Positions 7,314 through 35,785 of a DNA stretch of 64,000 nt are shown here, piece by piece. The notes below the pieces were generated by a model that did not search any database, was not told the DNA's origin, and was given only the letters and a program-made list of their open reading frames with translations. The stretch covers positions 32,001 through 96,000 of IMG/VR virus record IMGVR_UViG_3300023218_000040. One strand, 5' to 3'. Source of the stretch: a virus (taxonomy: Duplodnaviria > Caudoviricetes). The stretch's first letter is position 1. Every line of letters starts with the position of its first letter. Both the position numbers and the translations under genes were made by a program.

Positions 7314-8759
7314 ATGAGTAGAAATCACACGACGGCATCTGCTATTTCGAGAGCTATAGGTATTCATGGAGATCGGTACGACTATTCTCTATTCGAATAT
7401 CATGGGGACAAAAACCCTTCTATCATCATTTGTAAAGAGCATGGTCCATTCGAACAACGGGCTGGTAATCATTTACAAGGTCAGGGATGTCCGGATTGTG
7501 GTTTGTTAGATAGGAGTGAAAAACGTAGATTAGGAAAGAAACGTTTTCTAGAACAATGTTTAAAGATACATGGCGAAGCTTATGATTACTCACAATTCGT
7601 CTATCACAATAACAAGACCTCTGGTGTCATTATATGTCCTATCCATGGAGAATTTTCAAAAACCCCTATTGCTCATCTAAACAAAAAACGAGGATGTCCG
7701 TTTTGTACAAACGGGTATTATGAGAGAAAATCCAGTAACACCTTTATTCGTGATGCTAACCTAATTCATGAAGGAAGGTACAATTATGACCGAACAATAT
7801 ATAAAGGAGCATTTGTAAAAACAAATATAGTGTGTCATAAACATGGACAATTTGAGCAAGCACCCAAGGAACATTTACGTGGGAGGGGATGTCCGAAGTG
7901 CTCCACTACTACATCTACTCCACAATTAGAAATAGCCGGATACTTTAAGATGAACGGTTATGAAGTATCCTTAAATGATCGTAATGCTATCGCCCCATTA
8001 GAGTTGGATGTGTTCATACCCGAACTAAAACTTGCTATTGAATATTGTGGATTGTATTGGCATACAGAAAACATTTTAGGTAAAGAATATCATTATGAAA
8101 AGTATAACCGGTGTAAAGAACAAAACATTGTATTGATAACTATTTTCGAAGATGAATGGTTAGAAAAGAAGGATTGTGTTCTCAGAATACTACAAAACAG
8201 AACTGGTAATAATAAGACAATTACCGGTGCTAGAAACTTAGATGTCACAAAAATATCAGCCAGAGATAGTCATATATTTTTAGAAACGTTTCATATTGCC
8301 GGAAAATCTAGAGGATCTGTTCATCTAGGCGCATATCATAAGAACGAATTAATAGGAGTCATGACATTTGGTAAACCTACTAGACAATCTACCCATGAAT
8401 GGGAACTTCTAAGATTTGCTACCTCTGGGTTATATCCAGGATTGGCATCAAAGATGTTTAGAACATTTGTGAAGGATTATAATCCAAATACCGTAGTGAC
8501 CTTTGCAGATTGTAGATGGTTTTCTGGAAAAGTATTTGAGAGAATGGGATTTAAGTTTCAAAAACAGATACCTATAGATTACTCATACGTTAAAAATAAA
8601 AGGCGATACCACAAGTCGTTTATGAGAAAAGAACGTGTGCAAAACAGAGAATGCATCCCCACTGAAGGGAAAACAGAAAAAATGTTATCGAAAGAATTAG
8701 GATATTCCAGAATTTGGGATTGTGGAAAAAATCGATATGAATGGTTCAACCACGAATAG
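7314..8759 (+). CDS. Hef-like putative homing endonuclease: 3 Zn-ribbon repeats + PD-(D/E)XK nuclease + Mom/GNAT-like domain
   Basis: CxxHG..F.Q...H..G.GCPxC x3; ELDVFIPELKLAIEYCGLYWH; ELLRFAT...GLASKMF...VTFADCRW...RIWDCG; AT-rich relative to flanking genes. Confidence 0.8.
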   Translation: MSRNHTTASAISRAIGIHGDRYDYSLFEYHGDKNPSIIICKEHGPFEQRAGNHLQGQGCPDCGLLDRSEKRRLGKKRFLEQCLKIHGEAYDYSQFVYHNNKTSGVIICPIHGEFSKTPIAHLNKKRGCPFCTNGYYERKSSNTFIRDANLIHEGRYNYDRTIYKGAFVKTNIVCHKHGQFEQAPKEHLRGRGCPKCSTTTSTPQLEIAGYFKMNGYEVSLNDRNAIAPLELDVFIPELKLAIEYCGLYWHTENILGKEYHYEKYNRCKEQNIVLITIFEDEWLEKKDCVLRILQNRTGNNKTITGARNLDVTKISARDSHIFLETFHIAGKSRGSVHLGAYHKNELIGVMTFGKPTRQSTHEWELLRFATSGLYPGLASKMFRTFVKDYNPNTVVTFADCRWFSGKVFERMGFKFQKQIPIDYSYVKNKRRYHKSFMRKERVQNRECIPTEGKTEKMLSKELGYSRIWDCGKNRYEWFNHE

Positions 8760-9558
8760 GCTGAGGAATTTCCCCACTATCAGAATATAATAACAAGTCA
8801 TCTTCCAACACTTGTTTACGTTCCCAACCTTCACTAACTAATGCTTCTCCCTTCATAACCGTTCCACCTTGCGCACCGGGTAAGGTACTAAAAAGACGAT
8901 ATTTTTCACCCAAAATGACTTTGCACTCGGCCATCGAATACTCTTGAAGCCAGCGATAGGCCCAATGATCATTCAGTAACTCTTCCCATGACTTGAGCAC
9001 GCTGCAATCGGCAATAATAACCTCATCCTGGTCTGGAACCTGAGTAAGAAAAATACTATTCGTTTCATTTCTCCAGACAAAATGGAGTTCTCTTACAAAC
9101 AGACGATCCAAGGTCTCTTGGTACTGAAGAGTCAGGTCGTAGGACACCAAATCAAAGGCGGCACCATTCTGTCCAATGCCTCCACGAAGCAGTGTGTTAG
9201 CCGTGGCGGCTCCAAACGACTCGAACGCACCAGAGCCACCGGCGTTTCCTCCGAACAGCCCACGGGCTCTCCAAAGGCGTGTGACAGAATCCACTTTCTC
9301 ATCAAAAATATACTGCTGAACCTGGGGGAGAACGTCAATCACAGCGTAGGACTTATAATAGCAACGACCGGAATGGGTTCTGTAGGTGTCCACCGCTCGA
9401 CGCCAGGACACGTCAAAGTCTTCGTCTTCCAGGTGAACGTCAATGCTCTGGCCACCAAGACGAGTGTTAACCTCATAATAGAATCGCTCCAGCTTCCTTT
9501 TGGTCTCTGGGCGATTGACCTCGTGGTCTGATGGTTGCACTAGATCGAAGGTAGCCAT
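8746..9558 (-). CDS. gp13: Neck protein, T4 gp13-like
   Basis: TRLGGQSIDVHLEDEDF, WLQEYSMAECKVILGEKYRLF...PG.QGG motifs. Confidence 0.85.
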   Translation of the reverse strand: MATFDLVQPSDHEVNRPETKRKLERFYYEVNTRLGGQSIDVHLEDEDFDVSWRRAVDTYRTHSGRCYYKSYAVIDVLPQVQQYIFDEKVDSVTRLWRARGLFGGNAGGSGAFESFGAATANTLLRGGIGQNGAAFDLVSYDLTLQYQETLDRLFVRELHFVWRNETNSIFLTQVPDQDEVIIADCSVLKSWEELLNDHWAYRWLQEYSMAECKVILGEKYRLFSTLPGAQGGTVMKGEALVSEGWERKQVLEDDLLLYSDSGEIPQPIRG

Positions 9559-9582
9559 TCCAGTTCTCCAGTTTGTTCCAAG

Positions 9583-9588
9583 TATTTA
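9583..9588 (-). promoter_or_regulatory. Putative late promoter TAAATA
   Basis: 25 nt upstream of ATG 9558. Confidence 0.6.
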
Positions 9589-9682
9589 CCAACAGCGGAA
9601 ACACTGACCCTTCAGGACTAAAATACATTTCTCAGGCTTACCTCAGCCATTTACCTTGAAGATTTCTATACGGAGGCATAAG

Positions 9683-9712
9683 TTGACATAGATTTCATGT
9701 AAACCATATATA
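9683..9712 (+). promoter_or_regulatory. Putative sigma70-type promoter
   Basis: TTGACA-N18-TATATA upstream of the 9830 gene. Confidence 0.45.
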
Positions 9713-9829
9713 AATGTGTGACTCCTACCCTACAGAGGATTACACGTTTATTAACCAAGACCACAGGCAGTAAGCCCCGGCAAGTAGGTCGGGCATTTGA
9801 AGTCCTGCGGCAGTACAAGGAGATGTGAT

Positions 9830-11352: not shown

Positions 11353-11364
11353 GGTTTCTCCAGG

Positions 11365-11463
11365 TCAATCGTCTCGTAAGAACGCAAGATAGCACACTAC
11401 GGCAAAAGTGACAACACCTAGCCATAGGTGAATAATGTCCCAATTTTGAATTATCCAGTTCAT
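11365..11463 (-). CDS. Small single-pass membrane peptide (32 aa)
   Basis: MNWIIQNWDIIHLWLGVVTFAVVCYLAFLRDD, GGAG SD, below ORF-track cutoff. Confidence 0.4.
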   Translation of the reverse strand: MNWIIQNWDIIHLWLGVVTFAVVCYLAFLRDD

Positions 11464-22401: not shown

Positions 22402-23070
22402 ATGAACACACCACCCAAATATCCAAGCACCCCACATTGGCCCGCCTCACAGACGGTCCATCGGGACGACTCTCTTCACCAGACTCCAGCAGAGTTTGTG
22501 GGACGGGAAGTTGTAATCACTGAGAAGGTGGATGGTGGAAATACTTGCCTCTTCAATGGGGGAGTGTATGCTCGCTCGGTGGCTGCCCCATCGACGGCTA
22601 AGTGGTTTGCTATGGTGAAGAAACATCACGCCTGGAAGTTCAATTGTCAGCTTGATATTGCGGTCTATGGCGAGGACATCTATGGTGTTCATTCAATCAA
22701 GTACGCCCCTGTGGCTGAAGAAGAAACCTACCGTATCTTCGCCATTCGGGCTCTGAATACCGACCCAGATCGCTTCTACTCTTGGGACGACCTGGAGGCT
22801 TTCGGGGCGCAGTGGGGCATCAAGACGGTCCCTGTGATATATCGTGGGGTCTTCGACTCCATATATGATATCACGAACTTCTTCGAGACTGAGCTTTCTA
22901 ATGAAAGCGGTATTGGAGGGCAGGACCGTGAGGGGTTCGTCATGCGGGTCGCTGACAGCTTCCCTGCGGACGAATTCGCTCTTCGAGTGTGCAAGTACGT
23001 GCGTCCTAACCATGTTCAGACGGATGAGCATTGGACGAAGAACTGGAAGCCATGCGAGATTAAGCGTTAG
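22402..23070 (+). CDS. ATP-dependent RNA ligase family protein
   Basis: KYPSTPHW; motif I TEKVDGGN; YGED; motif IV REGFVMR; motif V KYVRPNHVQTDEHW. Confidence 0.8.
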   Translation: MNTPPKYPSTPHWPASQTVHRDDSLHQTPAEFVGREVVITEKVDGGNTCLFNGGVYARSVAAPSTAKWFAMVKKHHAWKFNCQLDIAVYGEDIYGVHSIKYAPVAEEETYRIFAIRALNTDPDRFYSWDDLEAFGAQWGIKTVPVIYRGVFDSIYDITNFFETELSNESGIGGQDREGFVMRVADSFPADEFALRVCKYVRPNHVQTDEHWTKNWKPCEIKR

Positions 23071-23075
23071 GGCAA

Positions 23076-23098
23076 GGCGGGAGGGCTTCCCTCCCGCC
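23076..23098. terminator. GC-rich hairpin between convergent genes
   Basis: GGCGGGAGGG-CTT-CCCTCCCGCC; no clear U tract. Confidence 0.55.
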
Positions 23099-23110
23099 GC
23101 CCTCGTCTTA

Positions 23111-23611
23111 TCAGGCCGACTTGACAGCCTTCAGGGTTTCCGTAGAACCGGGAATCACGTCTTCTGCTCCGTTCATATTAATAACTTTAAGCTTCCGTGG
23201 CTTTTCTGATTCCGGAATGACCCTGGTCACTGGAATAGTCAGCAAGCCATTCCTCATGCTCGGAACGCCCACTTCCATGTTGTCACCTAGACGGATCTCC
23301 AGGCTGAAATCACGACGAGCAATCCCCCGATGTAGGTACTCTTCGTTGTTGCCAGTTAGTAGACGACCAGAGATGGACAAATTACGGTTCTTTACTTCCA
23401 CATCGATTTGGTCAGGATCAAATCCAGTAGCAGCAACTTCTACCATGTACTTGTCCTCATCGATCTTGATGATGTTGTACTTTGGATAGTTGACATCCGG
23501 CGCATTCACATAGTTTCGAAGTTCGCTGAAAAGCGGTCCAAAACCTAGGACACGTGGATGATGAAAGGTTGATTCGAGTTCATCGAATAGACGAGTTAGT
23601 TCGTTACTCAT
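23111..23611 (-). CDS. hsp20: Small heat-shock protein (Hsp20 / IbpA-like)
   Basis: YPKYNIIK...YMVEVAATGF...YLHRGIARRDF...NGLLTI; AGGAGG SD. Confidence 0.95.
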   Translation of the reverse strand: MSNELTRLFDELESTFHHPRVLGFGPLFSELRNYVNAPDVNYPKYNIIKIDEDKYMVEVAATGFDPDQIDVEVKNRNLSISGRLLTGNNEEYLHRGIARRDFSLEIRLGDNMEVGVPSMRNGLLTIPVTRVIPESEKPRKLKVINMNGAEDVIPGSTETLKAVKSA

Positions 23612-23668
23612 TTTAGTATCCTCCTAGTTAGCAAGGTTACATTGTATAAGGCCCCAAAAGGCGACCTC
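23612..23668 (-). promoter_or_regulatory. ROSE-like RNA thermometer in hsp20 5' UTR
   Basis: CUUGCU-AACU-AGGAGG SD hairpin plus upstream hairpin GAGGUCGCC-UUUU-GGGGCCUU. Confidence 0.45.
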
Positions 23669-23713
23669 ACACTATATTTATGTCTCTTGCTCTGGAGAAT
23701 CAAGGTTTTGAAC

Positions 23714-24229
23714 TTACTTGAATACATCTGATATCTTGGAGCCAAATCGAGAGGGAGAAAAAAATCCCATCAGTTTGCGTTGTTTCTCGTCACCACGACC
23801 GCTGGTCACACGAACCTCGAAGCCTATGTATTTGCCGTTCCCGTAACCGTTCTTTTCGAAATGCTGACGCACCGCTTGCTTCATCATCGGTACAGAGGCA
23901 GCTACGATCCCGCTGGGGGTTTTGGCAATGTACAATTGAGCCTTGCCTTTCATGTCCCGACCCTCGATACCTTTATCAATGTCCTTCATGATCTCGAAAA
24001 TGATATCTTTTCCGGTCTCTCGTCCCTTGATCTGAACAGTAAGCTGCTTCTTATTAGTTTTGTTCCTGATGTATGCATCGATCTTGTCGTGCATGTCCGC
24101 ACTCTGCGATGCAGAAACGATCTCGTAGTCCGTTCCTTCGAGCATCTTTGCAACCGCATCGAAGATTTGCTTCTCCAGGGCTTTGCCTCTGGCTACTCGG
24201 TCCTGAAAGCTTCTATCTGCTATTACCAT
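23714..24229 (-). CDS. Hypothetical protein, possible PD-(D/E)XK nuclease fold
   Basis: GKALE...DMHDKIDAY...TVQIKGR pattern. Confidence 0.55.
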   Translation of the reverse strand: MVIADRSFQDRVARGKALEKQIFDAVAKMLEGTDYEIVSASQSADMHDKIDAYIRNKTNKKQLTVQIKGRETGKDIIFEIMKDIDKGIEGRDMKGKAQLYIAKTPSGIVAASVPMMKQAVRQHFEKNGYGNGKYIGFEVRVTSGRGDEKQRKLMGFFSPSRFGSKISDVFK

Positions 24230-25770
24230 CGGATAGTCTCCATACTGTTGTCTCTATTTACATCCCACTGCAATCGTAATTTTCCACAATCATATATAGA
24301 GTAATATCCTATATCATTCAACATTTGCTCCTTTGTAAGCAAAGAATTTGTTGCTTCACCAGAATCTAACATGCTCCTTTTTGTCTTGAATCTGCGGTGT
24401 TTTCTGTCTACAAAGTTAGTCCAAAATTTCGCTGGAGCAGTAGCACCATCAACTATAAACCCGGATATGGATTTGAAAGAACCAGTAAACCAACGTCGAT
24501 CTACAAACGCTACTACCGATGTATATCCTTTTTCACGTATTGCATGCTTAAACATCTTGGATCCCACACCAGGGTTGTTCTTTCCATTAGTCACAAATCT
24601 CTTCATTTCCACGACATCTTTTCTACCACGTTCATCTGACGGGTAACCAAACACCATTACCGAAATCAATTCATCTCCGTGGTAAGCTCCAATTCGGTAA
24701 TTGCCGGATTGTCCAGCACCAAGCAAATGATGCTTGTTCAAAAATTCTGATGCTGTAGCCCACGAAACCTCAAGAATAGTTGTGTTTCTGGCATACACAC
24801 CTTTGGGTGAACACCCTAAAAAATGTGCTAACGTGCTCTTAACGATTTCTTGCTTGTCTCTCCATTCATCCTCGAAAACTGTTATTAATCTAATACCTTT
24901 TTGTTCGCACAATTCGTGTTTTTTCAAGTGATACCTTTTATCTTTATTACCAAAGAAAGAAGAATGAGTGCGCAATCCACAATATTCTATTCCTAAATTG
25001 ATAGCTGGTATAAGAATATCGATTTCATATGGATTTATGGTATCTCTATCATTCTCTACTACTTCTACATTAAAACTCTTAACAAAATCACAAACTTCTT
25101 TTTCTGCTTTAGATGTTTGTTTTCCTATGGCACATTTTGGACAACCCACACCGGTATACATATGATGACCAGCATATTGCTCAACTTCACCATGTTTGGG
25201 GCAATCGATTTTTACCTTTTCATATTGATTGGTATATTCTACATTCGGATAACTGTATTTTCCATCATGTTTTTTTATGGAACGTTTAATGAATTCCTCA
25301 TTACCAACCCGTCGCTTTTCATTGGCACATTTTGGACATCCAGAACCATTTTTATGTCTAGAAACTTTCTGTTTAAACAATCCGTGATCAGGACATTCTA
25401 TTTCAAGTATATGACGGCTTCCTCTAAAATTTTCAGGCTTTTTGATGGGGTATTTGTACTTTTTTCCATGAATAGCAGTAAACTCTTCAATAAATTTGTT
25501 CCATCCCAGTTGTCTACCAGGACGGGTGAATGTTGTACATACGGGACAAAATATGTTTCGTTGAAGTATTCGATTGAATTTAGTTTTACAAACATTACAA
25601 ACAAATGGATAACTTATCCACTTACCATTCCTATGCTTTCCTTTATACTCTTTCAGTGTAAATTCTAAATGAATATCTGGCAACAGATCATTACTGATTT
25701 TATCATATGATCTCTGTAATTTTGTTGTTGATACTTTTTCCGACATGTTCATATTGATAATGTAACACAA
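24223..25770 (-). CDS. Hef-like putative homing endonuclease (Zn ribbons + PD-(D/E)XK + Mom/GNAT-like)
   Basis: CPDHG/CPKHG repeats; EIDILIPAINLGIEYCG; EMKRFVT...GVGSKMF...AFVDRRWF...SIYDCG. Confidence 0.8.
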   Translation of the reverse strand: MCYIINMNMSEKVSTTKLQRSYDKISNDLLPDIHLEFTLKEYKGKHRNGKWISYPFVCNVCKTKFNRILQRNIFCPVCTTFTRPGRQLGWNKFIEEFTAIHGKKYKYPIKKPENFRGSRHILEIECPDHGLFKQKVSRHKNGSGCPKCANEKRRVGNEEFIKRSIKKHDGKYSYPNVEYTNQYEKVKIDCPKHGEVEQYAGHHMYTGVGCPKCAIGKQTSKAEKEVCDFVKSFNVEVVENDRDTINPYEIDILIPAINLGIEYCGLRTHSSFFGNKDKRYHLKKHELCEQKGIRLITVFEDEWRDKQEIVKSTLAHFLGCSPKGVYARNTTILEVSWATASEFLNKHHLLGAGQSGNYRIGAYHGDELISVMVFGYPSDERGRKDVVEMKRFVTNGKNNPGVGSKMFKHAIREKGYTSVVAFVDRRWFTGSFKSISGFIVDGATAPAKFWTNFVDRKHRRFKTKRSMLDSGEATNSLLTKEQMLNDIGYYSIYDCGKLRLQWDVNRDNSMETIRW

Positions 25771-25827
25771 CTATAATGACAATCAAGATTTTACACTTGT
25801 TATGTACTTATCAACATTTGAACATAA

Positions 25828-25851
25828 AAGGGGGAGCCCTAGGCTCCCCTT
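25828..25851 (-). terminator. Intrinsic terminator
   Basis: GGGGAGCC-CTA-GGCTCCCC hairpin with U run on the minus strand. Confidence 0.75.
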
Positions 25852-25871
25852 CTACTTAGAATTGGACACTC

Positions 25872-26000
25872 TTATCCAATTAGTGAATTTCCTTTCTTCA
25901 GATTTTCCTGCTTGGTGAGAAGCTGCAAGTTTCCTTCAATATGAAGCCCGCACACACTCTCTCCATGCAATGGAATGATGTGGTCAACGTGATTCTTCAC
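25872..26000 (-). pseudogene. Truncated HNH endonuclease remnant (42 codons)
   Basis: GTG overlapping the Hef stop; KNHVDHIIPLHGESVCGLHIEGNLQLLTKQENLKKGN is a complete HNH core. Confidence 0.75.
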
Positions 26001-27877
26001 GTTGATTCCCAAACCAATCTGAGTTTGCCGCAATCATAAATGGGGTAGTATCCCAGGCTGTTTAACATTTGCTTCTTCGTCATATTTGGGTCAACCCCAT
26101 CCTTCTCTATCATGCTTTTTTTGGTTTTGAATCTACGCTGTTCTCTAGTGGAAAAATCAGTCCAATACTTCGTCGGCTGCGTCTTTCCATCTACTACAAA
26201 ACCAGAAAGCGCTTTGAAAGAACCAGTGAACCACCGTCTATCAACAAAGGCTATCACTTTAGTATACACCTTCTCGTCAACCGCATGCTTGAACATCTTG
26301 GAACCAACACCGGGGTTGTTCCTGCCATTCGTGACGAATCGCTTCATCTCGATGATATCCTCCATCCCACGCTCGTCGGAAGGATAACCAAACACCATGA
26401 CCGCTACTAACTCATCACCATGATACGCCCCGATTCTGTAGTTTCCTGGCTGACCAGCACCAAGAAGATGGTGCTTTTCCAAAAACCCGGAAGCAATCGA
26501 CCACGGAATATCATGTATTCTTGTTTTTCTGGCGAATACACCCTTCGGAGTGCATCCTAGAAAGTGCGACAACGTGCTCTTAACGATTTCTTGCTTGTCC
26601 CTCCACTCGTCCTCAAATATGGTAATCAATCGATATCCAGCATCTTCTGCCTTATCATGCTTCCGCACATGATAGTTGCGGTCCTTTCCTCCCTCACTTG
26701 AATGCCAATACAGACCACAATACTCTATAGCTAACTTCTTCTCTGGAATTACGATGTCGAGTTCGTATGGTGCTATAATACTTCGGTCTCGTTGAATTAC
26801 ATTGCCCTCACCAACCAAAGATGATACGAATTCGTATACCTCGATTTCACCTTTTGAAGTGATGCATGAACATATGGGACACCCTTGTCCTATCCAATGA
26901 TTCTTCGGTATTTGCTCAAAATCTCCATGCTCTTTACACGTTATCGTGACCTTCTTGTCAGCCAAGACATATTGCATCTTGGAGTAGTCATATCGGTCAC
27001 CGTGTGCCAATTTGAATCTCGCTATCACATCTTCTTGTGTGTTTCTGTTTGCATCAGCCATGCATTTAGGACAGCCATGACCTTTTTTGTGTAGTTTTGG
27101 AAGTTGTTCAAAATACCCGTGGTTTTTACACGTTATGGTAACGGGCGTACCATCACTAACGTATTTTGTTTTCGAATAATCATACTTCCCCCCGTGTATT
27201 TTCTTGAAATGTTCTATGACTTCTTCGGTGGTAAAAAGTCTGGTTCCACCACACTTCGGGCACCCGTGCCCACCATATAGATGGCCTCCAGCAAGTTGCT
27301 CAAAGCTTCCGTGAAGTGGGCAAATAATGGTCACCGGTCTGTTTTGGGATACGTAATCCACCAACGAATAATCGTATCGGTCGTTGTGTGCCTCTTTTGA
27401 CCTGGAAATAAAGGTATCGGTATCTAGTGAGCGAATTTCTATCGCACAAGACTTGCATCCACTTTTGAGATGGGAATGTGGTAGTTGTTCCCATACACCG
27501 TGTTTTGGGCACCGAATAGCTATTTTGGTATGTGCGTTCTTGTAGTCCACCAAAGAGTAGTCGTAGAGGTCGCCATGCACTGCTTGCGCCTCTTCAATGA
27601 ATCTTTTTTTGTCCCAAGGTTTGCGTCCACCAACACCCGGTCTCTTTTTACCTTTGGAAGTAGTACCACGTCTATCATTGAAGCATCCGGGGCAACCCGA
27701 AGTATTCAACACATGGTTCTTCGCCGTGGGGAAAAAATCGCCATGGATCTTACAAGTTACACGAATTTTTGACTGAAGATTACGGAATTCGGATAGGTCA
27801 TACTCATACCTATCACCATGAACTTCACAAGCTTTATCTAAAACTAAATCGGATGTCCATCGAATTCTGGATGACAT
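25997..27877 (-). CDS. Hef-like putative homing endonuclease (5 Zn ribbons + PD-(D/E)XK + Mom/GNAT-like)
   Basis: Five CxxHG...GCxxC repeats; ELDIVIPEKKLAIEYCGLYWH; C-terminal half closely similar to the 24223-25770 protein. Confidence 0.82.
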   Translation of the reverse strand: MSSRIRWTSDLVLDKACEVHGDRYEYDLSEFRNLQSKIRVTCKIHGDFFPTAKNHVLNTSGCPGCFNDRRGTTSKGKKRPGVGGRKPWDKKRFIEEAQAVHGDLYDYSLVDYKNAHTKIAIRCPKHGVWEQLPHSHLKSGCKSCAIEIRSLDTDTFISRSKEAHNDRYDYSLVDYVSQNRPVTIICPLHGSFEQLAGGHLYGGHGCPKCGGTRLFTTEEVIEHFKKIHGGKYDYSKTKYVSDGTPVTITCKNHGYFEQLPKLHKKGHGCPKCMADANRNTQEDVIARFKLAHGDRYDYSKMQYVLADKKVTITCKEHGDFEQIPKNHWIGQGCPICSCITSKGEIEVYEFVSSLVGEGNVIQRDRSIIAPYELDIVIPEKKLAIEYCGLYWHSSEGGKDRNYHVRKHDKAEDAGYRLITIFEDEWRDKQEIVKSTLSHFLGCTPKGVFARKTRIHDIPWSIASGFLEKHHLLGAGQPGNYRIGAYHGDELVAVMVFGYPSDERGMEDIIEMKRFVTNGRNNPGVGSKMFKHAVDEKVYTKVIAFVDRRWFTGSFKALSGFVVDGKTQPTKYWTDFSTREQRRFKTKKSMIEKDGVDPNMTKKQMLNSLGYYPIYDCGKLRLVWEST

Positions 27878-27918
27878 GACCTAAACCCTTCCAATACTAT
27901 CCCGCCAATATATGCGGT

Positions 27919-27924
27919 TATTTA
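27919..27924 (-). promoter_or_regulatory. Putative late promoter TAAATA for the endonuclease gene
   Basis: Just downstream of the capsid terminator, 42 nt upstream of ATG 27877. Confidence 0.55.
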
Positions 27925-27939
27925 GGGTTTGTAAAGGTC

Positions 27940-27968
27940 AAAAAGAAAAGGGCACCAACGGTGCCCTT
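27940..27968 (-). terminator. Intrinsic terminator of the major capsid gene
   Basis: AAGGGCACC-GTT-GGTGCCCTT followed by TTCTTTTT on the minus strand. Confidence 0.85.
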
Positions 27969-27996
27969 CTTCCTGCTTCGTAAGTTGTTGTTATTC

Positions 27997-29220
27997 TTAC
28001 AAAAAGCTCAAGGTAGCGGCGTTAATTCCAACCAAACCAAGATAGTCGGCACTGTTACCGAGCGACGTCGCACTGTTTACGAACTCCACGTAGCCATATC
28101 TGGTGTAGAAGCTGGTTACCAGTTCGAACGTGTTCGGGTCGGTGACCACGCCGTGCGTCGTCAAAGGTACGTATGGTGTGTAAAATGTCGCAGCGTCAAC
28201 TTCGCTAGATCCCTTATATCCGATTAGGACCGGAGTGTCGTCATCAGCGTAGTTGTCAACGTAGACACGCATCGAGTTGTTGAGCGTACCAACATACTTG
28301 TTGTTGGTAGGTGCGTCGAACGAACCCTCAGTCGTACGGGCAAAAGCCGATGCACGAGCAGACTCGATTACGGTCAGGATGGTTGGGGATATAACCGCCC
28401 AGTTACCCTTACCACGACGGGTACGAACAGCGATACGGTTTGCCTCACGACCGATTAGAACGGCCAGAGCGGCGAATTCGTCAACAACCGAAGTTGCTTG
28501 ACCAGACACTGCGGACTGATCAAAAGTATTTGCAACGGTTGGTGTAGGTGGCAGAGCACGCAGGTTGCGTAGAATTTCCTGGTCGATTTCGACCGTGATG
28601 TCCTGAGCAACAGCAGCCAGTAGCTCTTCTTCTACGTCCACACCGTACTGGTTCTGAGCGTCTGTCTGAGCCTCAACAGTCCAGCGAGCCGATAGGCGGC
28701 GGGACTTAGCTTCGACAACCTGCTTCAACATCTCCAGCTTAACAGCGTTACCTGGAACACCTTCAAGCTGAGCAGTCAATGCACCAGCAGGGGTGGCGGC
28801 AACCTCGTTACCAGAGTATGAAGCAGCTAGGTCACGTACGTGTAGAGGAGCTAGCATTTCCTCTCCAGCAATGGTGCCAGCACCAGCAGAAGTTGTTCCG
28901 TAGACGTAACGAAGGGTCATGATCTGTGCGACCGGACCCGGCATTGGCTGTACGCCAACCAGTTCGTTTACGATTACGTTTGGTAGCACACGACGAATGA
29001 TAGGCAGAATTACCTTGTTCAGCGTTGCAATGTTACCCGTGGATACGGCAGAAGCTGAGGCATTTTCCATCAGATACTTCTGGCGTCCCACGAAATCCTT
29101 ACGGGTGTTCTCTAGGCACTTGTCCATGATCTTAGCCTTCTTTGGCGGAAGACCATCCATCAAGGCTTCCTTGATGCGCAGCCACTTCGAGTTACCCTTT
29201 TCAGTGATCACGTTAGGCAT
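27997..29220 (-). CDS. gp23: Major capsid protein, T4 gp23-like
   Basis: GVQPMPGP, VEAKSRRLSARWTVEAQTDA, EIDQEIL, RRGKGNW, FYTPYVPL, TRYG motifs. Confidence 0.97.
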   Translation of the reverse strand: MPNVITEKGNSKWLRIKEALMDGLPPKKAKIMDKCLENTRKDFVGRQKYLMENASASAVSTGNIATLNKVILPIIRRVLPNVIVNELVGVQPMPGPVAQIMTLRYVYGTTSAGAGTIAGEEMLAPLHVRDLAASYSGNEVAATPAGALTAQLEGVPGNAVKLEMLKQVVEAKSRRLSARWTVEAQTDAQNQYGVDVEEELLAAVAQDITVEIDQEILRNLRALPPTPTVANTFDQSAVSGQATSVVDEFAALAVLIGREANRIAVRTRRGKGNWAVISPTILTVIESARASAFARTTEGSFDAPTNNKYVGTLNNSMRVYVDNYADDDTPVLIGYKGSSEVDAATFYTPYVPLTTHGVVTDPNTFELVTSFYTRYGYVEFVNSATSLGNSADYLGLVGINAATLSFL

Positions 29221-29265
29221 TGTTCTTTCCTCTCCTTATAGGGGGTGGGAGAATGTATTCTTGGT

Positions 29266-29271
29266 TATTTA
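29266..29271 (-). promoter_or_regulatory. Putative late promoter TAAATA
   Basis: 46 nt upstream of the capsid ATG. Confidence 0.65.
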
Positions 29272-29313
29272 GAAATTTGTTACCAAAATACGTCCCATAT
29301 CCCTCAAAAACGG

Positions 29314-30399
29314 TTATTTTTCGATTCCGGCTAGGCGTGAAATCTCTAGAATCTCATCATCATCTGCCGCATCGGTGTTGCGAGACTCCTTGAGAGTACG
29401 CTGTCCACCGGTCTTCAGTTCTACTACCGACTCTTCCAGCTTACGGCGCTTGTGCTGCTTTGCTGGTGCCTTGGCTTCGTTCAATAGCTCTGGGAGCCAC
29501 TTCTTGTATGTTGCCTGTAGCTTATCGGTACGAGATGCTTCCAACAGATCCTTCATCTTCTCACGAGTTCGACCTGTTAGCGGACTTAGCATCTTATTGA
29601 TAGCACGTGCACGGACCACAGACTCTTGTAACTTCTTCTTGCTGAGTTCTGCGTTACGTGCCGCTTCCCTTGCTTCCTTGATTTTCTTATTTGCCTTAGC
29701 CTCAAGCATTCGGGCTCGCTTCTGCGACTCCTTCAGCTTTCCGGTTATAGCACGGAATTCCTTATTGCTGTCAAAGAACTGACGACGGAAGGTGGTCATG
29801 AACGACTCGTAAATCTCACGACCGAAGTCAGACTGACGGGCAGCCTTGATGTCTTCACGAAGCTCATCTAGGGTACCCTGAACCTGAACATTCACGATGT
29901 GCTCAAGAACAGCCGCAGCCTTCTGACGGAACGCATCACGGTCGGACTCTAGCTGAGCCTTCTTTTCCGTTAGTGCATTCAAATATGCCTTGCGATTGAC
30001 CTTCTCACTTTCATGAAGCTCAGAAAGTTCACGTGCAAGCACGCCTTCAATGACCTTCTCAACTGCACCAAGACGCTTTGCTACGTATTCACGGGCATGC
30101 TCCTTTACAGTAGCACGCTCGTCAACGAGCTTCTTCTTCAATGTATCAACTTCCTCCAAACCAGTTCGGAGGTCACTGACTGCACCATTCAGTTCCTGCT
30201 CTAGAAACTGTTCAAGAGCAGCATGGATAGCCTTCTTATCCTTAGCGTAACGCTCAGCAAGTTCACCACGAATTGCCTTCTCCTGCTCCACCTTGGCTTC
30301 CGCCAATGTGTCGCTGAATACCTTCGCAATCTTCTTTCGAGTGTCTTCGTTAAGAACGTCCATGCTCTCTAGGATCTTCTGTAGAGTATCCTCAAGCAT
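29314..30399 (-). CDS. Prohead scaffold/core protein, gp22-like
   Basis: Coiled-coil, Glu/Lys/Ala-rich; between protease and capsid; ends ISRLAGI. Confidence 0.85.
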   Translation of the reverse strand: MLEDTLQKILESMDVLNEDTRKKIAKVFSDTLAEAKVEQEKAIRGELAERYAKDKKAIHAALEQFLEQELNGAVSDLRTGLEEVDTLKKKLVDERATVKEHAREYVAKRLGAVEKVIEGVLARELSELHESEKVNRKAYLNALTEKKAQLESDRDAFRQKAAAVLEHIVNVQVQGTLDELREDIKAARQSDFGREIYESFMTTFRRQFFDSNKEFRAITGKLKESQKRARMLEAKANKKIKEAREAARNAELSKKKLQESVVRARAINKMLSPLTGRTREKMKDLLEASRTDKLQATYKKWLPELLNEAKAPAKQHKRRKLEESVVELKTGGQRTLKESRNTDAADDDEILEISRLAGIEK

Positions 30400-30400
30400 C

Positions 30401-31051
30401 TTACTTTCTCCACTTGTATTGATCCCGGACTTCCGTCAGGAATCGAGTGATTTCTTGTTCTAGAAAACGTTGTGCGTCTTCATCATGACGTACGTATTCT
30501 GTTAGCTTCATAGCCTCTTGACCATGCTTGCTCCCCATCAAACTCTCTGCAAGAGAAGCATGAGGATAAGCACTTGGAGCGCTTGGGTTTGCAACAATGT
30601 CCACCGTAACGATGTCAAAATCACTTACCCTTCCCTGACCGTCAATATTTCCGGAACCACGTGAACTTACGCCCATCTGCATACCGGCTTCAATACAACC
30701 CTTGACGATCAAACCCATTCCAGCATTCACGATTCTCATCGCACCCATGCCGTTATTTCCATTCATATTCATCTCAGTGATGACATGAGAGATCCTGTCC
30801 ATGTTAATGTTCAGTCCCTCTGGATGGTCTAGCTCGCCAGGGATCGGACCTTTTGACTGAATACGCTCGTTTATATGACCCACGGCTTTTTCAATTTCAT
30901 TCCGTGGGTACACACGACCATTATGGTTCTGCGTCTCACCCTCAAGGAATAAACCCTTCAGGTAATAGAACCCGTCTTTACCGTTGCTTTCTCCGACAAG
31001 AGGTTTGGCTTCGGGTAAAATGACCTCAGTCAGTAAACGTTTCTCAGTCAT
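30401..31051 (-). CDS. gp21: Prohead protease, T4 gp21-like
   Basis: NHNGRVYP, GELDHPE, ISHVI, GVSSRGSG, DIVANPSAP. Confidence 0.95.
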   Translation of the reverse strand: MTEKRLLTEVILPEAKPLVGESNGKDGFYYLKGLFLEGETQNHNGRVYPRNEIEKAVGHINERIQSKGPIPGELDHPEGLNINMDRISHVITEMNMNGNNGMGAMRIVNAGMGLIVKGCIEAGMQMGVSSRGSGNIDGQGRVSDFDIVTVDIVANPSAPSAYPHASLAESLMGSKHGQEAMKLTEYVRHDEDAQRFLEQEITRFLTEVRDQYKWRK

Positions 31052-31081
31052 TTGACTATTTGCTCCAGATTACGTAATGAA

Positions 31082-32068
31082 TTAATCCTCGTCCTTCGAA
31101 TAGGCAGGCTCATCATCGTCATCGTATTCTTTGTCGTAGTCCTTGGACTTCTTGTCTTCATCGTCCTTGGACTTGTAGTCATTAGACTTGTAGTCCTTGG
31201 ACTTCTTGTCTTCATCATCGTATTCGCCCTTGGACTCGTAACCCTTGGACTTGTAACCCTTGGACTTGTAGTCATCGTCGTATTCGTTCTCGGTTTCCAT
31301 ACGATAAGACTTGTCACCATGACCCATGCCTTCCATCTCGTCCTCTTCATGTTCAACACTATCAAGGTCGTCATCGCCCTCTAAATCAAGGTCGAAATCA
31401 AAGCCCATGTCATCATCGTTCATGTCGTTTTCGTAATCCATCTCTGAATCACTATCGCCATCCATGTCCATATCCATGTTGTTTTCATAGTCTGCATCGT
31501 CCATGCCGTCCGAAGCATCAGGAGAACCCATACCGTTGTCATCCATGCCGATCATGAGGTCATCATAGTCCTCGTCGCCATCCTCAACGTCCGTTCCTTC
31601 ATCCTCGTAAGACATGTCACCGCCCATCTCGTTGTATGGATTGCGGCCATCACCCTTCTTGTTGTATACCGAGTCTAGATGATCCATGTTTTCAAATACG
31701 TCGGACAAATCGAACTCATCAGAACCTAGAAGGTCCGAGATGTTCTTTGCCGACTCCATCTGTTGTTCACTCTCTGGAGCATCCCTGTTATCGGACGGCT
31801 TGTGGGTTACTGTGTTTGCCATGCTGGAAGGATCAGTGTTTAGCTCCTCAAAGCTAATCTCTTCTGCCACTCCGGACAGCGAGTCCTCAGCAGCCTCTAG
31901 CTGGTCCCATAGGTCTCGTGACTTTTCTAGCACGAGTGTGTGAAGCTTTTCAGATGCGACCTTTGCAGCGCCTTCGTTGACAACTCGAAGCTTACCCTTC
32001 TCGTCAACAGTGTAGCCCTCAAAAATCGAATCTAAAATCTCTGTCATGAGATTCTGATATCTGGACAT
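31082..32068 (-). CDS. Highly acidic prohead core / internal head protein
   Basis: Helical N-terminus (LHTLVLEKSRDLWDQL), then Asp/Glu/Met-rich low complexity; lies between portal and protease. Confidence 0.75.
   Translation of the reverse strand: MSRYQNLMTEILDSIFEGYTVDEKGKLRVVNEGAAKVASEKLHTLVLEKSRDLWDQLEAAEDSLSGVAEEISFEELNTDPSSMANTVTHKPSDNRDAPESEQQMESAKNISDLLGSDEFDLSDVFENMDHLDSVYNKKGDGRNPYNEMGGDMSYEDEGTDVEDGDEDYDDLMIGMDDNGMGSPDASDGMDDADYENNMDMDMDGDSDSEMDYENDMNDDDMGFDFDLDLEGDDDLDSVEHEEDEMEGMGHGDKSYRMETENEYDDDYKSKGYKSKGYESKGEYDDEDKKSKDYKSNDYKSKDDEDKKSKDYDKEYDDDDEPAYSKDED
31125..31285 (-). repeat. Coding tandem repeats (KSK(G/D)Y, DDEDKKSKDY)
   Basis: Repeated CTTGGACTTGTA / CCTTGGACTTCTTGTCTTCATC units. 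Confidence 0.8.
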
Positions 32069-32117
32069 TTCTCTTACCTCTCGTCAGATTGCCTTGTTTC
32101 GGAAAAATCCGTGTAGA

Positions 32118-32123
32118 TATTTA
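32118..32123 (-). promoter_or_regulatory. Putative late promoter TAAATA
   Basis: 50 nt upstream of ATG 32068. Confidence 0.55.
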
Positions 32124-32179
32124 ACAAGGAGTGATTCTTTTCTGACCAAAACCCCTCATTATAGATAAATTTCATTGAT

Positions 32180-34258
32180 TTATAGTCCACCACCCAGACC
32201 ACCGCCCAATCCTCCAAGACCACCTTCCTCAGATGGAGTCTTATAGACCTTCTGAATCATTTTCATTCTCTTGGAGTTTTCAACTCGTCGGGTCAACTGT
32301 GATTTGCGGACCTTTTGAAGTAAGCTCAACGTAATCTTGAAACCACCACCGATTGCATCTGGATGATCTTCAACATCAGCACCTACAGGGAATAAGTTAT
32401 CATTAGGAGTCTGTGAATGACCAAGGTCATCCACAGACTGTGGGGCAGGTTTTAGGTCACCAGCCGTAACTGGAGCCTCGGTTAGTGTTCTCTTTCCGAT
32501 AATCATCTCAGTTTCTCCAAATCCTCCAATACCAGCGCCACCAGGGGCACCACCAGTAGCACCAGTCATAACACCACCCGCCATATCAGCACCAAGGTCT
32601 CCAAAGCCATCTGCTCCAACACCACCGCCTAGATCACCTACTCCGGGACCAAGACCCATCTGACCACCACCCAGGCCGCCACCCAGGCCGCCACCGAAGC
32701 CACCACCAAATCCTCCACCAGCACCAAGCTCAGCGAAGTCAGTAGCATCCTTCGGATCGAATCGCTCCTCCATTACCATCTTTTCGTTCTCTACAATTTC
32801 ATCCTCAGTCCAACCCATGTACTTCTTCAGTCCGAAGCGACGGGAGATGTAAGGCTCATCCTTGATGGACTGCCATACACTAATGTTATCCTGATCACGA
32901 GCGTTCTGCTTGAACTCATCGTAGTTGGTTGGCTCGTTGAAATGCATATCGTAGTCAGCAGCATTTACATTAACATCACGAACCTTACAGTACAGTTTGA
33001 ATTCGAAATCGAACGTGTCGTCCATGTTCTTCTGGATACGCTCGCAGAATTTGGAGAACTCAATTTCCTCCTGATACGCCACACCAACACGACCATCGTT
33101 GAATACGGAACCACCCTCTTCTGGTCCTAGCAACCAAGAGTGCGGTACACGCAATGAACGCATCATCTTCTTGGTAAAATACTGAAGGTCTGGTAGCTCA
33201 TTCCATGGCTGCCCCTCAAGAGTCTCTACCTTGGAACCACGTTGATCGAAGGACACCGGAATGTAGATGTCTTCCAACTGAGAAATTGGGTTGTACACAG
33301 AGTCTACGCTTCTCTGGCCATCGCTTAGAATTTGGGGCACACGCTTCTGGTTTAGCTCGTTCTTGAAATTGTTGACGACCCAACTAGCACGGTCAGGACG
33401 CATCTTACCGGTGTCGATGTACCACACGGTACGTGACGGAGCACGCTGTGTGCGATGAATAATTGCAGCGTCCTCAAGAAGTTCACGTTGCTTGAATGTC
33501 TTCGAGGCATTCTCCAAGAAAGACTCCCCAAACGGCCAACGATTATTATAGCGATCTGATGGATCATCATCACCAGAAGCACCAGCAAACTTACCCTCGG
33601 AAACCGTTACCTGCATCATGTGAATTGAGGGTATAACCCTAGTATTACGCATACCAGAAGATAAGCTCAAGCTCTTGATAGAATCACTGAGACCACGGTT
33701 ATCCACGGTTAGTTCGATGTTCTCGATGTTGAACTTGAAGTTTCGAACGATCCAGGCAATTACCTGAGTGCTCTCTCGATCAACCAAGGCACCCAAAACG
33801 AAACGTGGGTGAACAGAGAATAACTCAAATGTATCAGGATTCCTGAAGAAAAACCAATCTCCATATTTGACTACGTTTCGGATGGTTCGCCATAGACGAT
33901 TATCCCACTCGTTAATACGAGTCCACTGTGTCATGTTCTCTATGACCAGACCAGACTCTTCCTCGGTTGGATCAAGAGCCCAATCAAAGTACCAGAAGTG
34001 TCCTTCGTCATTTATGGGAGAGCAATGCTCAGAAATCAAATCAAGGGCTCGGGATACATCAGAATCTTGATCCATCCAGTCATATAATTTATATCGTTCT
34101 AGCCTATCATATCTGCCCCTATATACTTGTTGGAGCATATTGAAATTATCAGAGCTACCACCGGACCACGAGTTGTCGCCTCCATAGGAGTGGAGTGTTA
34201 GTTTACGCTTACGGCGGTTACGACCGAGGTCAGGCTTTGCTATAGTGGTCCAGGCCAT
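32180..34258 (-). CDS. gp20: Portal protein, T4 gp20-like, with Gly-rich linker and C-terminal extension
   Basis: YDWMDQDSDV, LLEDAAIIHRTQRAPSR.V.YIDTG.M, EDIYIP...RGSKVETL.G, LQYF.KKM.RSLRVP.S, E.EFSKFC.R. Confidence 0.95.
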   Translation of the reverse strand: MAWTTIAKPDLGRNRRKRKLTLHSYGGDNSWSGGSSDNFNMLQQVYRGRYDRLERYKLYDWMDQDSDVSRALDLISEHCSPINDEGHFWYFDWALDPTEEESGLVIENMTQWTRINEWDNRLWRTIRNVVKYGDWFFFRNPDTFELFSVHPRFVLGALVDRESTQVIAWIVRNFKFNIENIELTVDNRGLSDSIKSLSLSSGMRNTRVIPSIHMMQVTVSEGKFAGASGDDDPSDRYNNRWPFGESFLENASKTFKQRELLEDAAIIHRTQRAPSRTVWYIDTGKMRPDRASWVVNNFKNELNQKRVPQILSDGQRSVDSVYNPISQLEDIYIPVSFDQRGSKVETLEGQPWNELPDLQYFTKKMMRSLRVPHSWLLGPEEGGSVFNDGRVGVAYQEEIEFSKFCERIQKNMDDTFDFEFKLYCKVRDVNVNAADYDMHFNEPTNYDEFKQNARDQDNISVWQSIKDEPYISRRFGLKKYMGWTEDEIVENEKMVMEERFDPKDATDFAELGAGGGFGGGFGGGLGGGLGGGQMGLGPGVGDLGGGVGADGFGDLGADMAGGVMTGATGGAPGGAGIGGFGETEMIIGKRTLTEAPVTAGDLKPAPQSVDDLGHSQTPNDNLFPVGADVEDHPDAIGGGFKITLSLLQKVRKSQLTRRVENSKRMKMIQKVYKTPSEEGGLGGLGGGLGGGL

Positions 34259-34297
34259 TCTCTTGATATCCGGTGGGAATTAGTGATAACATATGTC

Positions 34298-34303
34298 TAT
34301 TTA
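34298..34303 (-). promoter_or_regulatory. Putative late promoter TAAATA
   Basis: 40 nt upstream of the portal ATG. Confidence 0.6.
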
Positions 34304-34324
34304 CTTCAAGAAACCATAGGTCTA

Positions 34325-35785
34325 ATGGCTAGAAAATTCACCACGAAAGATTTCATCGAGCAAAGCCGTACGGTTCATGGTGAGGTATTCGATTACAGTA
34401 AGGTGACATACACCACGGCTCGTGATCCCGTGGTCATCATCTGTCCGGTTCATGGCGAGTTTGAGCAAATCGCTCACACGCACATGAGGGGTCGTGGATG
34501 TGCTAAGTGTTCTGCCAAAAAGATGGCTGTCAAAAGAAGCATGAAAATAGCCTCTGAATATATTGACAGGGTTAAGAAAGTTCATGGCGAACTCTACGAT
34601 CTATCTCTAGTTCGATATTCATCGGCAAAAGAACCAGTAGTGGTCATTTGTGGAAGGCATGGTAGATTTGAGATACGAGCGGATGTCTTTGAATCTGGGT
34701 CAATCTGTCCAAAGTGTTCGTATGAAAAGCGTGGACAAGATAAAGCAGATTCTTTTGAGGAATTTGTGGACAAAGGACAGCGATTGCATGCTGATCTATA
34801 TCGATATCCGCATCAAGTTTATAAGAATGCTTTTACTCACGTTGATATTGAATGTCGTACACACGGTGTATTTTCTCAAATTCCAAATAGCCACCTATCT
34901 GGTAATGGTTGTCCAAAATGTGTGCATCATGTATCATCCGGAGAGGAAGAGATAGCCAATTTTGTTAGAAATATGGCTCCAGACTTACAAACTAGCGTTA
35001 GAACAATAGTTCCGCCGAAAGAAATTGACATGTACAGTGAACAACACCAAATAGGAATCGAATATTGCGGATTGTATTGGCACACAGAAAATCGTGGTAA
35101 GAACAAAACATACCATATCGAAAAGCTGGATGGCTGTTTGAAGAAGGGAATAAATCTTATAACTATTTTCGAAGATGAATGGATTCACAACACCGATAAA
35201 GTTCAATCTCGTCTAACTCAATTGTTTGGGGCTACACCACAGCGCATTGCAGCACGAAAATGTGAGATAGAGATCGTATCTTCATCAGAATGTAGTTTAT
35301 TCATGAATGCTAATCATATTCAAGGAGCAGACATTTCTAGTGTTAGATTTGGTCTTAGGTATCATGGTGAATTAGTATCAATCATGACATTCGTTAAACC
35401 TAGATTTTCTAAAACCTACCAATGGGAGATGTCCAGGTTTTGCTCTAAAAACGGTATTTCGATAACAGGAGCAGCAGGAAAACTGTTTTCTAATTTCTTA
35501 CGAGAACATAACCCAAGCAGTGTAGTAACATACGCAGATTTGCGGTATGGGCGGGGGTACTTTTATAAACATCTGGGGTTTAAGCATTCCCATGATTCAA
35601 ATCCAAACTATTGGTATGTTGCCCCAGGCTCTACCATAAGAGAATCCCGTATGAAATACCAAAAGCACAAACTCATCAAGGAAGGATTTGATCCTGGCAA
35701 ATCCGAATGGCAAATCATGCAAGAGCGTGGTTATGACCGCATCTGGGATTGTGGTAATGCTGTTTGGGTATGGAACAAGAATTAA
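34325..35785 (+). CDS. Hef-like putative homing endonuclease (3 Zn ribbons + PD-(D/E)XK + Mom/GNAT-like)
   Basis: EIDMYSEQHQIGIEYCGLYWH; WEMSRFC...GAAGKLF...VTYADLRYG...RIWDCG; start set at ATG 34325. Confidence 0.8.
   Translation: MARKFTTKDFIEQSRTVHGEVFDYSKVTYTTARDPVVIICPVHGEFEQIAHTHMRGRGCAKCSAKKMAVKRSMKIASEYIDRVKKVHGELYDLSLVRYSSAKEPVVVICGRHGRFEIRADVFESGSICPKCSYEKRGQDKADSFEEFVDKGQRLHADLYRYPHQVYKNAFTHVDIECRTHGVFSQIPNSHLSGNGCPKCVHHVSSGEEEIANFVRNMAPDLQTSVRTIVPPKEIDMYSEQHQIGIEYCGLYWHTENRGKNKTYHIEKLDGCLKKGINLITIFEDEWIHNTDKVQSRLTQLFGATPQRIAARKCEIEIVSSSECSLFMNANHIQGADISSVRFGLRYHGELVSIMTFVKPRFSKTYQWEMSRFCSKNGISITGAAGKLFSNFLREHNPSSVVTYADLRYGRGYFYKHLGFKHSHDSNPNYWYVAPGSTIRESRMKYQKHKLIKEGFDPGKSEWQIMQERGYDRIWDCGNAVWVWNKN

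Follow-up and report, generated by a model that had tools for sequence, protein, structure and literature searches.

The stretch of DNA analysed here is a 64,000-nucleotide window (positions 32,001 to 96,000) of the IMG/VR record IMGVR_UViG_3300023218_000040, from an uncultured jumbo phage. It carries four open reading frames (ORFs), HEF1 to HEF4 (proteins P0001 to P0004), each of which encodes an array of CxxHG...GCxxC zinc-ribbon repeats, a nuclease core and a C-terminal domain related to Mom, the DNA-modifying enzyme of phage Mu. The source record is 204 kb long with an estimated completeness of 55%, and holds eight full-length copies of this gene in all (P0001 to P0008), four of them inside the window. 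The paralogues HEF1 to HEF4 align over their full length, with 34-39% identity to P0001 and ~95 invariant columns. The eight genes belong, as additional members, to the Hef-type (EDxHD) family of homing endonucleases, in which the Mom-like domain is usual.

A large, already annotated family

All eight copies match both phrog_3339 and phrog_559, the latter with E 1e-82 to 1e-152, over the full length of the protein or nearly all of it. PHROG 3339 is labelled 'homing endonuclease'; the label of PHROG 559, 'HNH endonuclease', is a mislabel. A tblastn search with the whole protein found 956 GenBank phage records, and one with the Mom-like domain by itself found 411; the homologues are annotated as 'Hef', 'Hef-like homing endonuclease', 'homing endonuclease' or 'putative nuclease/acetyltransferase protein'. 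In Campylobacter phages there are 9-11 copies each, some of them beside neck genes. The assignment to the Hef type rests on the PHROG matches, on these database annotations of homologues and on Taylor et al. 2011 (PMC3239194), who placed the 'bacteriophage Hef type homing endonucleases' in the family of I-Bth0305I, the prototype of the EDxHD (Vsr-like) homing endonucleases.

The family is very large. A word-indexed search returned 5,879 protein clusters at E ≤ 1e-10, and an exhaustive profile search with the Mom-like domain returned 20,595 clusters at E ≤ 1e-3, with 11,993 at E ≤ 1e-30. Of the 20,595 clusters, the 150 best nearly all have the domain at the C-terminal end of a protein of 440-1060 aa.

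A preliminary description of the window, made from its letters, had reported four ORFs with 2-5 repeats, a nuclease core and a C-terminal domain, lying beside neck, capsid and portal genes. All four ORFs are present at the coordinates it gave, each with all three elements, and PHROG matches identify the neighbours as head-tail adaptor, major head and portal genes (Table 1). Its further suggestion, that the genes form an undescribed system, does not survive: they are full-length members of PHROG 559 and 3339, and the idea of a cut-and-protect element is already in print, Iyer et al. 2021 (PMC7824862) having predicted for jumbo phages that momylation shields phage DNA and that the nuclease is directed against host DNA or that of a superinfecting phage. 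Our search of the literature for work that pairs Mom with DUF723, or Hef-like genes with an acetyltransferase, found none.

The nuclease domain

The nuclease core, ~95 aa with the pattern ELD...IEYCGLYWH...YH..K...FEDEW, is present in all four window copies. When a profile of this core, built from 40 homologues, was compared with the PDB, it matched the catalytic domain of I-Bth0305I (3R3P) with E 4.5e-9, and the match spans the whole nuclease domain (profile positions 4-98 against chain residues 8-96). The Pfam families Vsr and MTES_1575 match the core weakly, and a phmmer search of P0001 against the PDB gave nothing meaningful. The assignment comes from the sequence profile match to 3R3P, since the VIA match list of the structural model described below is filled by GNATs.

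The correspondence extends to most of the active-site residues. The 3R3P crystal is that of a D196A/H213A double mutant, and D232 and H250 of the present family align exactly with the two alanines: the equivalent of I-Bth0305I D196 is D232 in 56 of 57 homologues, and that of H213 is H250 in 57 of 57. Taken together, E230, D232, E243, H250 and H260 are each retained in 55-57 of the 57. An invariant Glu, E206, lies near the position of I-Bth0305I E170, and the position of D222 is occupied by an invariant His (H260), not by Asp; of the composite EDxHD motif (E170, D196, H213 and D222) three positions out of four thus agree.

The Mom-like domain

The C-terminal domain, ~185 aa with the pattern E(L/M)xRF...SK(L/M)F...(A/V)D.R...GF...WDCG, is also found in all four window copies. 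An AlphaFold2 model of P0001 residues 205-481, computed from 57 sequences, has a GNAT fold with high scores (mean predicted local distance difference test, pLDDT, 96; predicted template modelling score, pTM, 0.89). The top match of this model in a Foldseek search of the PDB was Mu Mom (8BV8; E 1.5e-8, 193 aligned columns, 20% identity), with generic GNAT acetyltransferases next. VIA-align gave 8BV8 a Z-score of 12.9 and a root-mean-square deviation of 2.6 Å over 142 residues, with the highest sequence identity among the tied GNATs. The preliminary description had named the lack of a GNAT fold as one result that would refute its proposal; the modelled fold is GNAT, and the reading of the genes as nuclease/Mom-like fusions is supported, with the essential residues of Mom mostly retained.

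At the level of family profiles, five of the eight copies have a match to phrog_1384 ('Mom-like' DNA modification protein), with E 3e-13 to 2e-6. Pfam Mom (PF25680) has a gathering cut-off of 27.1 bits, which P0006 (31.6 bits) is the sole copy to exceed; below it are P0001 (23.3 bits, 28.8 summed), P0002 (19.9), P0005 (18.0) and P0003 (16.6). For P0004, P0007 and P0008 neither phrog_1384 nor Pfam Mom gave a listed match. The helical (helix-turn-helix-like) insertion specific to Mom (Mom residues ~175-209) has its counterpart here: the alignment places a ~40-residue segment at this point, and in the AlphaFold2 model the insertion is formed by helices at model residues 230-258, between strands 226-228 and 261-264.

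Mutagenesis of Mu Mom has shown that R111, D149 and R151 are essential or strongly required, that H58A causes a drastic loss of activity and that S124A is dead (PMC13219725). In the alignment with Mu Mom, every one of the eight copies has H58, R111, D149 and R151, each of which is also conserved in 55-57 of the 57 homologues, and Y159 is retained in five of the eight and in 51 of the 57. At the S124 position six copies have Ser, P0007 has Thr and HEF4 has Gly. Judged by alignment and model, the domain is a Mom-related GNAT with a largely intact catalytic core, and the invariance of H58, R111, D149 and R151 suggests that it is probably active.

The chemistry to be expected of such a domain has recently changed. 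Mom moves glycine from Gly-tRNAGly, and the resulting glycyl-adenine rearranges to carbamoylmethyl-adenine (Silva et al. 2026, PMC13219725), which supersedes the earlier acetyl-CoA/iron model (PMC7261163). Because Mom uses Gly-tRNAGly, the acyl-CoA binding test proposed in the preliminary description is outdated.

The zinc-ribbon array

The N-terminal part of each protein is the repeat array. Counted by regular expression, the CxxHG...GCxxC repeats, ~65 aa each, number 3, 2, 5 and 3 in HEF1 to HEF4. Pfam DUF723 scores 24-56 bits in these four copies (56 bits in HEF3) against a cut-off of 20.9, and the arrays also give weaker matches to the Pfam 'treble clef' family DUF4379. Across all eight copies the array comprises 1-5 DUF723/CapR-type modules. 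We infer that the array binds DNA, in which case it would read a long site. Homing genes that encode an EDxHD/Vsr nuclease preceded by three to five CapR/DUF4379/DUF723-like modules have been described as forming a very large group that is under-annotated (Nucleic Acids Res 2025, PMC12350094).

The copy P0006, which lies just upstream of the window (L008:1489-3075, minus strand, corresponding to G000 30230-31816), departs from this plan. It has a single DUF723 repeat, and the remainder of the array is replaced by a separate CxxC...CxxC ribbon and by a NUMOD3 motif, which scores 28.2 bits (cut-off 20.4); this composition points to module swapping in the DNA-reading part. A further protein of the window, 239 aa long (2391-3110, plus strand), combines two DUF723 repeats with a different C-terminal domain (phrog_681 'endonuclease', E 3.7e-33) and has neither the EDxHD core nor the Mom-like domain; from its sequence, DUF723 repeats appear to have been shuffled onto a second type of nuclease.

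Insertion, distribution and origins

We compared the window with related viral contigs; a related portal (54-99% identity) is encoded by ten contigs. The HEF4 site is empty in L014 and L021, where no more than 73 and 64 bp, respectively, separate the end of the 803-aa gene's homologue from the portal start; in the window the gap between these two genes is 1,523 bp and is occupied by HEF4 on the opposite strand. The HEF1 site is likewise empty in relatives: in L028 a gap of 128 bp separates the homologues of the adaptor and structural-protein genes, and in L029 the two abut (~0 bp). In the window HEF1 lies on the strand opposite to both of these neighbours, and the 3' end of the adaptor gene overlaps its stop by 14 nt. 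HEF1 and HEF4 are clean, low-GC, opposite-strand insertions of ~1.5 kb between genes that are adjacent in relatives.

The distribution of the genes is sporadic. One relative that is 90% complete has no copy and one that is 93% complete has a single copy, compared with eight in the 55%-complete record; in a 103-kb fragment there is no more than a repeat-bearing protein. In base composition, the GC fraction of all eight genes is 0.36-0.44 against 0.45-0.52 in their 3-kb flanks; it is 0.36 in HEF1 (flanks 0.45) and 0.36 in HEF2.

A maximum-likelihood tree of the nuclease and Mom region requires at least five origins for the eight copies. The only sister pairs among them are HEF2/HEF3, which are arranged in tandem, and P0005/P0006, which are 3 kb apart; the sister of P0001 is a protein from another metagenome. 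The homologues in this tree were picked as the best matches of P0001 and are a biased sample. HEF2 and HEF3 are 67% identical over the nuclease and Mom domains, which, together with their position as sisters, marks them as a tandem duplicate.

The interval between the capsid gene and hsp20, which holds this pair, is a cargo hot spot (window 23611-27997; L014:16245-20588; L021:15884-19240). In the window it holds HEF3, HEF2 and a 171-aa ORF. The cargo of relatives is unrelated: one of them has unknown genes along with a dienelactone hydrolase and NadA, and another has both an RNA ligase and an AAA ATPase.

Among close strains the genes persist. A 99%-identical fragment, L013, also carries the 5' end of HEF4, and a 60-kb contig of a 99.6%-identical strain retains HEF2 to HEF4. 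In the contigs of four runs of one study, covering 22500-38500, no joint skips HEF2 to HEF4; contigs drop rare variants, so this result is silent on rare forms that lack the homing endonuclease genes. Within the sampled population the genes look fixed. Loose contig ends occur at 35060-35091 because HEF1 and HEF4 share a 35-nt, 91%-identical stretch there, over IEYCGLYWHTE. In their insertion, composition and ancestry, the HEF genes behave as mobile inserts.

Genomic setting and expression signals

The coordinates of the window genes, their neighbours and the features within them are collected in Table 1. A megablast search of GenBank phages with 13.5 kb of the window gave no match. HEF2 probably starts not at the TTG at 25770 but 18-24 nt downstream of it, at either of two in-frame ATGs in MNMSEK. 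For HEF4, the ATG at 34325 (MARKFTTKDF...) agrees with the paralogues better than the upstream GTG at 34283; from it the gene runs between the portal gene and the 803-aa gene, on the strand opposite to both.

Table 1. Genes and features of the HEF loci in window coordinates
Feature	Position	Strand	Description
Virion structural protein gene	5908..7179	-	phrog_11591; flank gene B of HEF1
HEF1 (P0001, 481 aa)	7314..8759	+	3 DUF723 repeats, nuclease, Mom-like GNAT domain
HEF1, DUF723 array			aa 1-200
HEF1, EDxHD/Vsr-like nuclease	~7911-8201		aa ~200-296
HEF1, Mom-like GNAT domain	~8202-8756		aa 297-481
Head-tail adaptor (Ad2-like) gene	8746..9558	-	phrog_211, E 3e-25; flank gene A of HEF1
HEF2 (P0002, 515 aa)	24223..25770	-	N-terminal CxxC...CxxC ribbon, 2 DUF723 repeats, nuclease, Mom-like domain
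HEF3 (P0003, 626 aa)	25997..27877	-	5 DUF723 repeats, nuclease, Mom-like domain; directly downstream of capsid gene
HEF3 5' control region	27877..27975	-	capsid-gene terminator (27950-27975), then hairpin
Major head protein gene	27997..29220	-	phrog_138, E 2e-88; upstream neighbour of HEF3
Portal gene	32180..34258	-	phrog_213, E 3e-71; start codon 66 bp from divergent HEF4 start
HEF4 (P0004, 486 aa from ATG)	34325..35785	+	3 DUF723 repeats, nuclease, Mom-like domain
803-aa gene	35782..38193	-	stop overlaps HEF4 stop; other flank of HEF4 insertion

Two of the copies may have a structured 5' leader. In the HEF3 control region, the 3' arm of the hairpin covers an AAGGG ribosome-binding site, and a CTAAATA box resembling a late promoter lies inside the hairpin. 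Upstream of P0006, a perfect TATAAATA is located inside a similar hairpin (G000 31816-31880, on L008, outside the window). The folding z-scores are weak (-1.6 for HEF3; the other value is -2.4), and for HEF1 and HEF4 the predicted folding of the 5' leader does not exceed that of shuffled sequence. In phage T4, read-through transcripts of homing genes are translationally silent, and only the transcripts from late promoters are translated. By analogy, the HEF3 and P0006 leaders are suggestive of a T4-style translational control of homing genes.

One of the virion-module genes in this region is itself variable. The repeat-rich ORF at 31082-32068 contains 30-nt direct repeats (31136-31282), and a strain variant on a contig of run X2 has a 15-nt in-frame insertion (CCCTTGGACTCGTAA) at 31226; direct repeats and insertion variant together indicate that the repeat number of this gene varies.

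How the genes would spread and spare their carrier

Very probably, the eight genes are free-standing Hef-type homing endonuclease genes whose protein is built in three parts. The analysis shows which domains they have, that the active-site residues are conserved, with what geometry they are inserted, that they occur sporadically and that they arose more than once. In the mechanism that we envisage, the zinc-ribbon array would address a long DNA site, and the EDxHD nuclease would cut the allele of a co-infecting relative that is without the gene. Recombinational repair would then copy the gene into the cut genome, and with it the neighbouring alleles of capsid, portal or neck genes. The scheme is drawn from what is established for free-standing homing endonucleases of phages (PMC2988022). 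The preliminary description had set the genes apart from classical homing enzymes, and on this point we differ from it: the genes belong to PHROG 559 and 3339, their nuclease matches the homing endonuclease I-Bth0305I (3R3P), and their pattern of insertion and absence is that of free-standing homing genes.

What is the Mom-like domain for? A free-standing gene leaves its own target uninterrupted, and its insertion would not protect the carrier genome. We propose, tentatively and at somewhat below an even chance, that the domain is an active, probably aminoacyl-tRNA-dependent adenine-N6 modifier that acts at or near the site read by its own array. Local modification of adenine would in this case shield the carrier genome from its own nuclease, a self-shielding role that would explain why every copy retains a Mom domain of its own. 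We favour a local, protective role because the catalytic core is under strong purifying selection, because each nuclease has its own Mom domain, and because the published intron-encoded EDxHD enzymes (I-Bth0305I and those of group II intron homing endonuclease genes) end with the nuclease and are without the domain. Insertion of an intron destroys its own target, so the absence of the domain from the intron enzymes fits a need for protection that only free-standing copies would have.

A number of points weigh against a modifying role. The published examples from which the contrast between intron-encoded and free-standing enzymes is drawn are few. Many GNATs have a VIA Z-score that ties with that of Mom, and in the comparison of sequence profiles with the PDB a generic GNAT (2BSW, E 3e-4) ranked slightly above Mom (E 3e-3). 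The S124 position varies, with Ser in 30 and Gly in 20 of the 57 homologues as well as Gly in HEF4, and three other Mom residues, W48, Y59 and W181, are not retained: the position of W48, a residue of the Mom dimer, is occupied in the eight copies by R, A, S, S, E, T, S and K, and that of Y59 in the 57 homologues by Ile, Leu or Met. Among the Mom-like domains, the split between Ser and Gly may mark active versus inactive, or mechanistically different, forms.

These same residues also speak for the likeliest of the alternatives, in which the proteins are homing endonucleases and the Mom-like domain is a non-modifying module for DNA binding, adenine flipping or dimerisation that positions the nuclease. 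The conserved Arg, Asp, Arg and His would in that case be conserved because they bind and not because they catalyse, which would agree with the tolerance of Gly at a position where S124A is dead in Mom, with the loss of W48, Y59 and W181, and with the suggestion of Karambelkar 2020 that R111 (their R101) touches the flipped base and not the cofactor. Since EDxHD nucleases work without a Mom domain, the domain can also be regarded as an add-on. Against this, the four core residues are invariant among proteins that are only 30-45% identical in the domain, and the Mom-specific helical insertion is kept, a conservation beyond what a binding scaffold usually needs. We consider a non-modifying domain possible, though on the doubtful side.

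The fully developed form of our own proposal is a site-specific cut-and-mark enzyme, in which the array would address one long site, the Mom-like domain would use an aminoacyl-tRNA to aminoacylate an adenine of the carrier at that site, and the nuclease would cut the unmarked DNA of rivals. We put it forward with reserve, as a scheme that may be correct but is rather less than probable.

A second alternative, proposed by Iyer et al. 2021 and in the preliminary description, treats the proteins as single-polypeptide restriction-modification weapons and not as homing enzymes: the phage genome would be broadly momylated, and unmodified DNA of the host or of a superinfecting phage would be degraded. 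A nuclease and a Mom-like domain with an intact catalytic core do share one chain in all copies, the prediction is published (PMC7824862), and the benefit of such a weapon to the phage could account for the retention of eight copies. However, variable arrays of 1-5 modules imply long, rare target sites and not the frequent sites of a restriction enzyme, and eight separate Mom domains would be redundant for the protection of a whole genome. The clean pattern of insertion and absence, the low GC and the polyphyletic origin are typical of selfish mobile genes, and the nearest characterised relatives of the nuclease (I-Bth0305I and, by the literature, U5 Hef) are homing enzymes. We regard a restriction weapon as unlikely.

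Very unlikely, in our view, is that the domain acts as in Mu, against host restriction and independently of a nuclease to which it is fused by hitch-hiking, for although anti-restriction is the documented function of Mom and the active-site residues are conserved, the domain is C-terminal in the large proteins of nearly all of the best 150 clusters, one domain accompanies each nuclease in all eight copies, and a search of the 204-kb record found no stand-alone Mom gene. The C-terminal position and the pairing of one Mom domain with each nuclease argue for functional coupling rather than accidental linkage.

Significance

For the window itself the result means little more than that eight genes of its source record join a family of selfish phage genes that is very large and was annotated before, and cut-and-protect is a published prediction for the whole family, not a discovery of this window. 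The role of the domain is a matter for the family rather than for this locus: a Mom-like domain whose catalytic core is intact is found in tens of thousands of homing endonucleases. With Gly-tRNAGly established as the donor of Mom, an in vitro assay is available, and the cut-and-protect prediction can be tested directly. If it is true, it would explain how free-standing homing genes spare their own genome, and would provide programmable-looking zinc-ribbon arrays that are coupled to a nuclease and a DNA modifier. In the site-specific cut-and-mark form described above, these proteins would be the first homing endonucleases with a built-in epigenetic self-immunity, and tRNA-dependent modification of DNA would have its second case only, in a family of more than 10,000 protein clusters.

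Comparison with known systems

Nuclease and DNA-modifying domain are also combined in one polypeptide in the Type IIG/IIL single-chain restriction-modification enzymes, such as MmeI. They offer a possible parallel to a coupling of cutting with protection at a single recognised site, though as an analogy only: the modifying domain of those enzymes is an S-adenosylmethionine-dependent methyltransferase and that of the HEF proteins a GNAT, and the two folds are unrelated.

Mu Mom (8BV8) shares with the HEF domain the GNAT fold, the helical insertion between the last strands, the invariant H58, R111, D149 and R151 and, in most cases, Y159. It differs in sequence (~15-20% identity), in the loss from the HEF domain of W48 and the variation of the S124 position between Ser and Gly, and in organisation, Mom being a stand-alone dimer under the control of com and the HEF domain being fused to a nuclease. 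The HEF domain is known here from sequence and model.

I-Bth0305I is homologous to the HEF nuclease over the whole length of the domain, with the Mg-binding Asp and the catalytic His kept, and has a modular DNA-binding region on the same, N-terminal side. In contrast to the HEF proteins, it is encoded in an intron, uses NUMOD/helix-turn-helix modules, ends with the nuclease without a Mom-like domain, and has D222 where the HEF family has its invariant His. The group I and group II intron genes described in PMC12350094 resemble the HEF genes in their N-terminal part, with 3-5 zinc-ribbon modules of ~60 aa followed by an EDxHD/Vsr-like nuclease. They too are intron-encoded and end after a nuclease of ~100 aa, whereas the HEF genes are free-standing and continue into the Mom-like domain.

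The closest known system is that of Hef of phage U5 and the Hef-like proteins of T4-related, Campylobacter, Acinetobacter, Klebsiella and jumbo phages; judged by the full-length PHROG matches and the annotations of homologues, architecture and sequence family are the same throughout. As here, several Hef-like genes can be present in one genome, next to neck, capsid and other conserved genes (for example in LIMEstone1). We find no difference in kind between these genes and those of the window, whose copies are new members of the family at ~35-55% identity.

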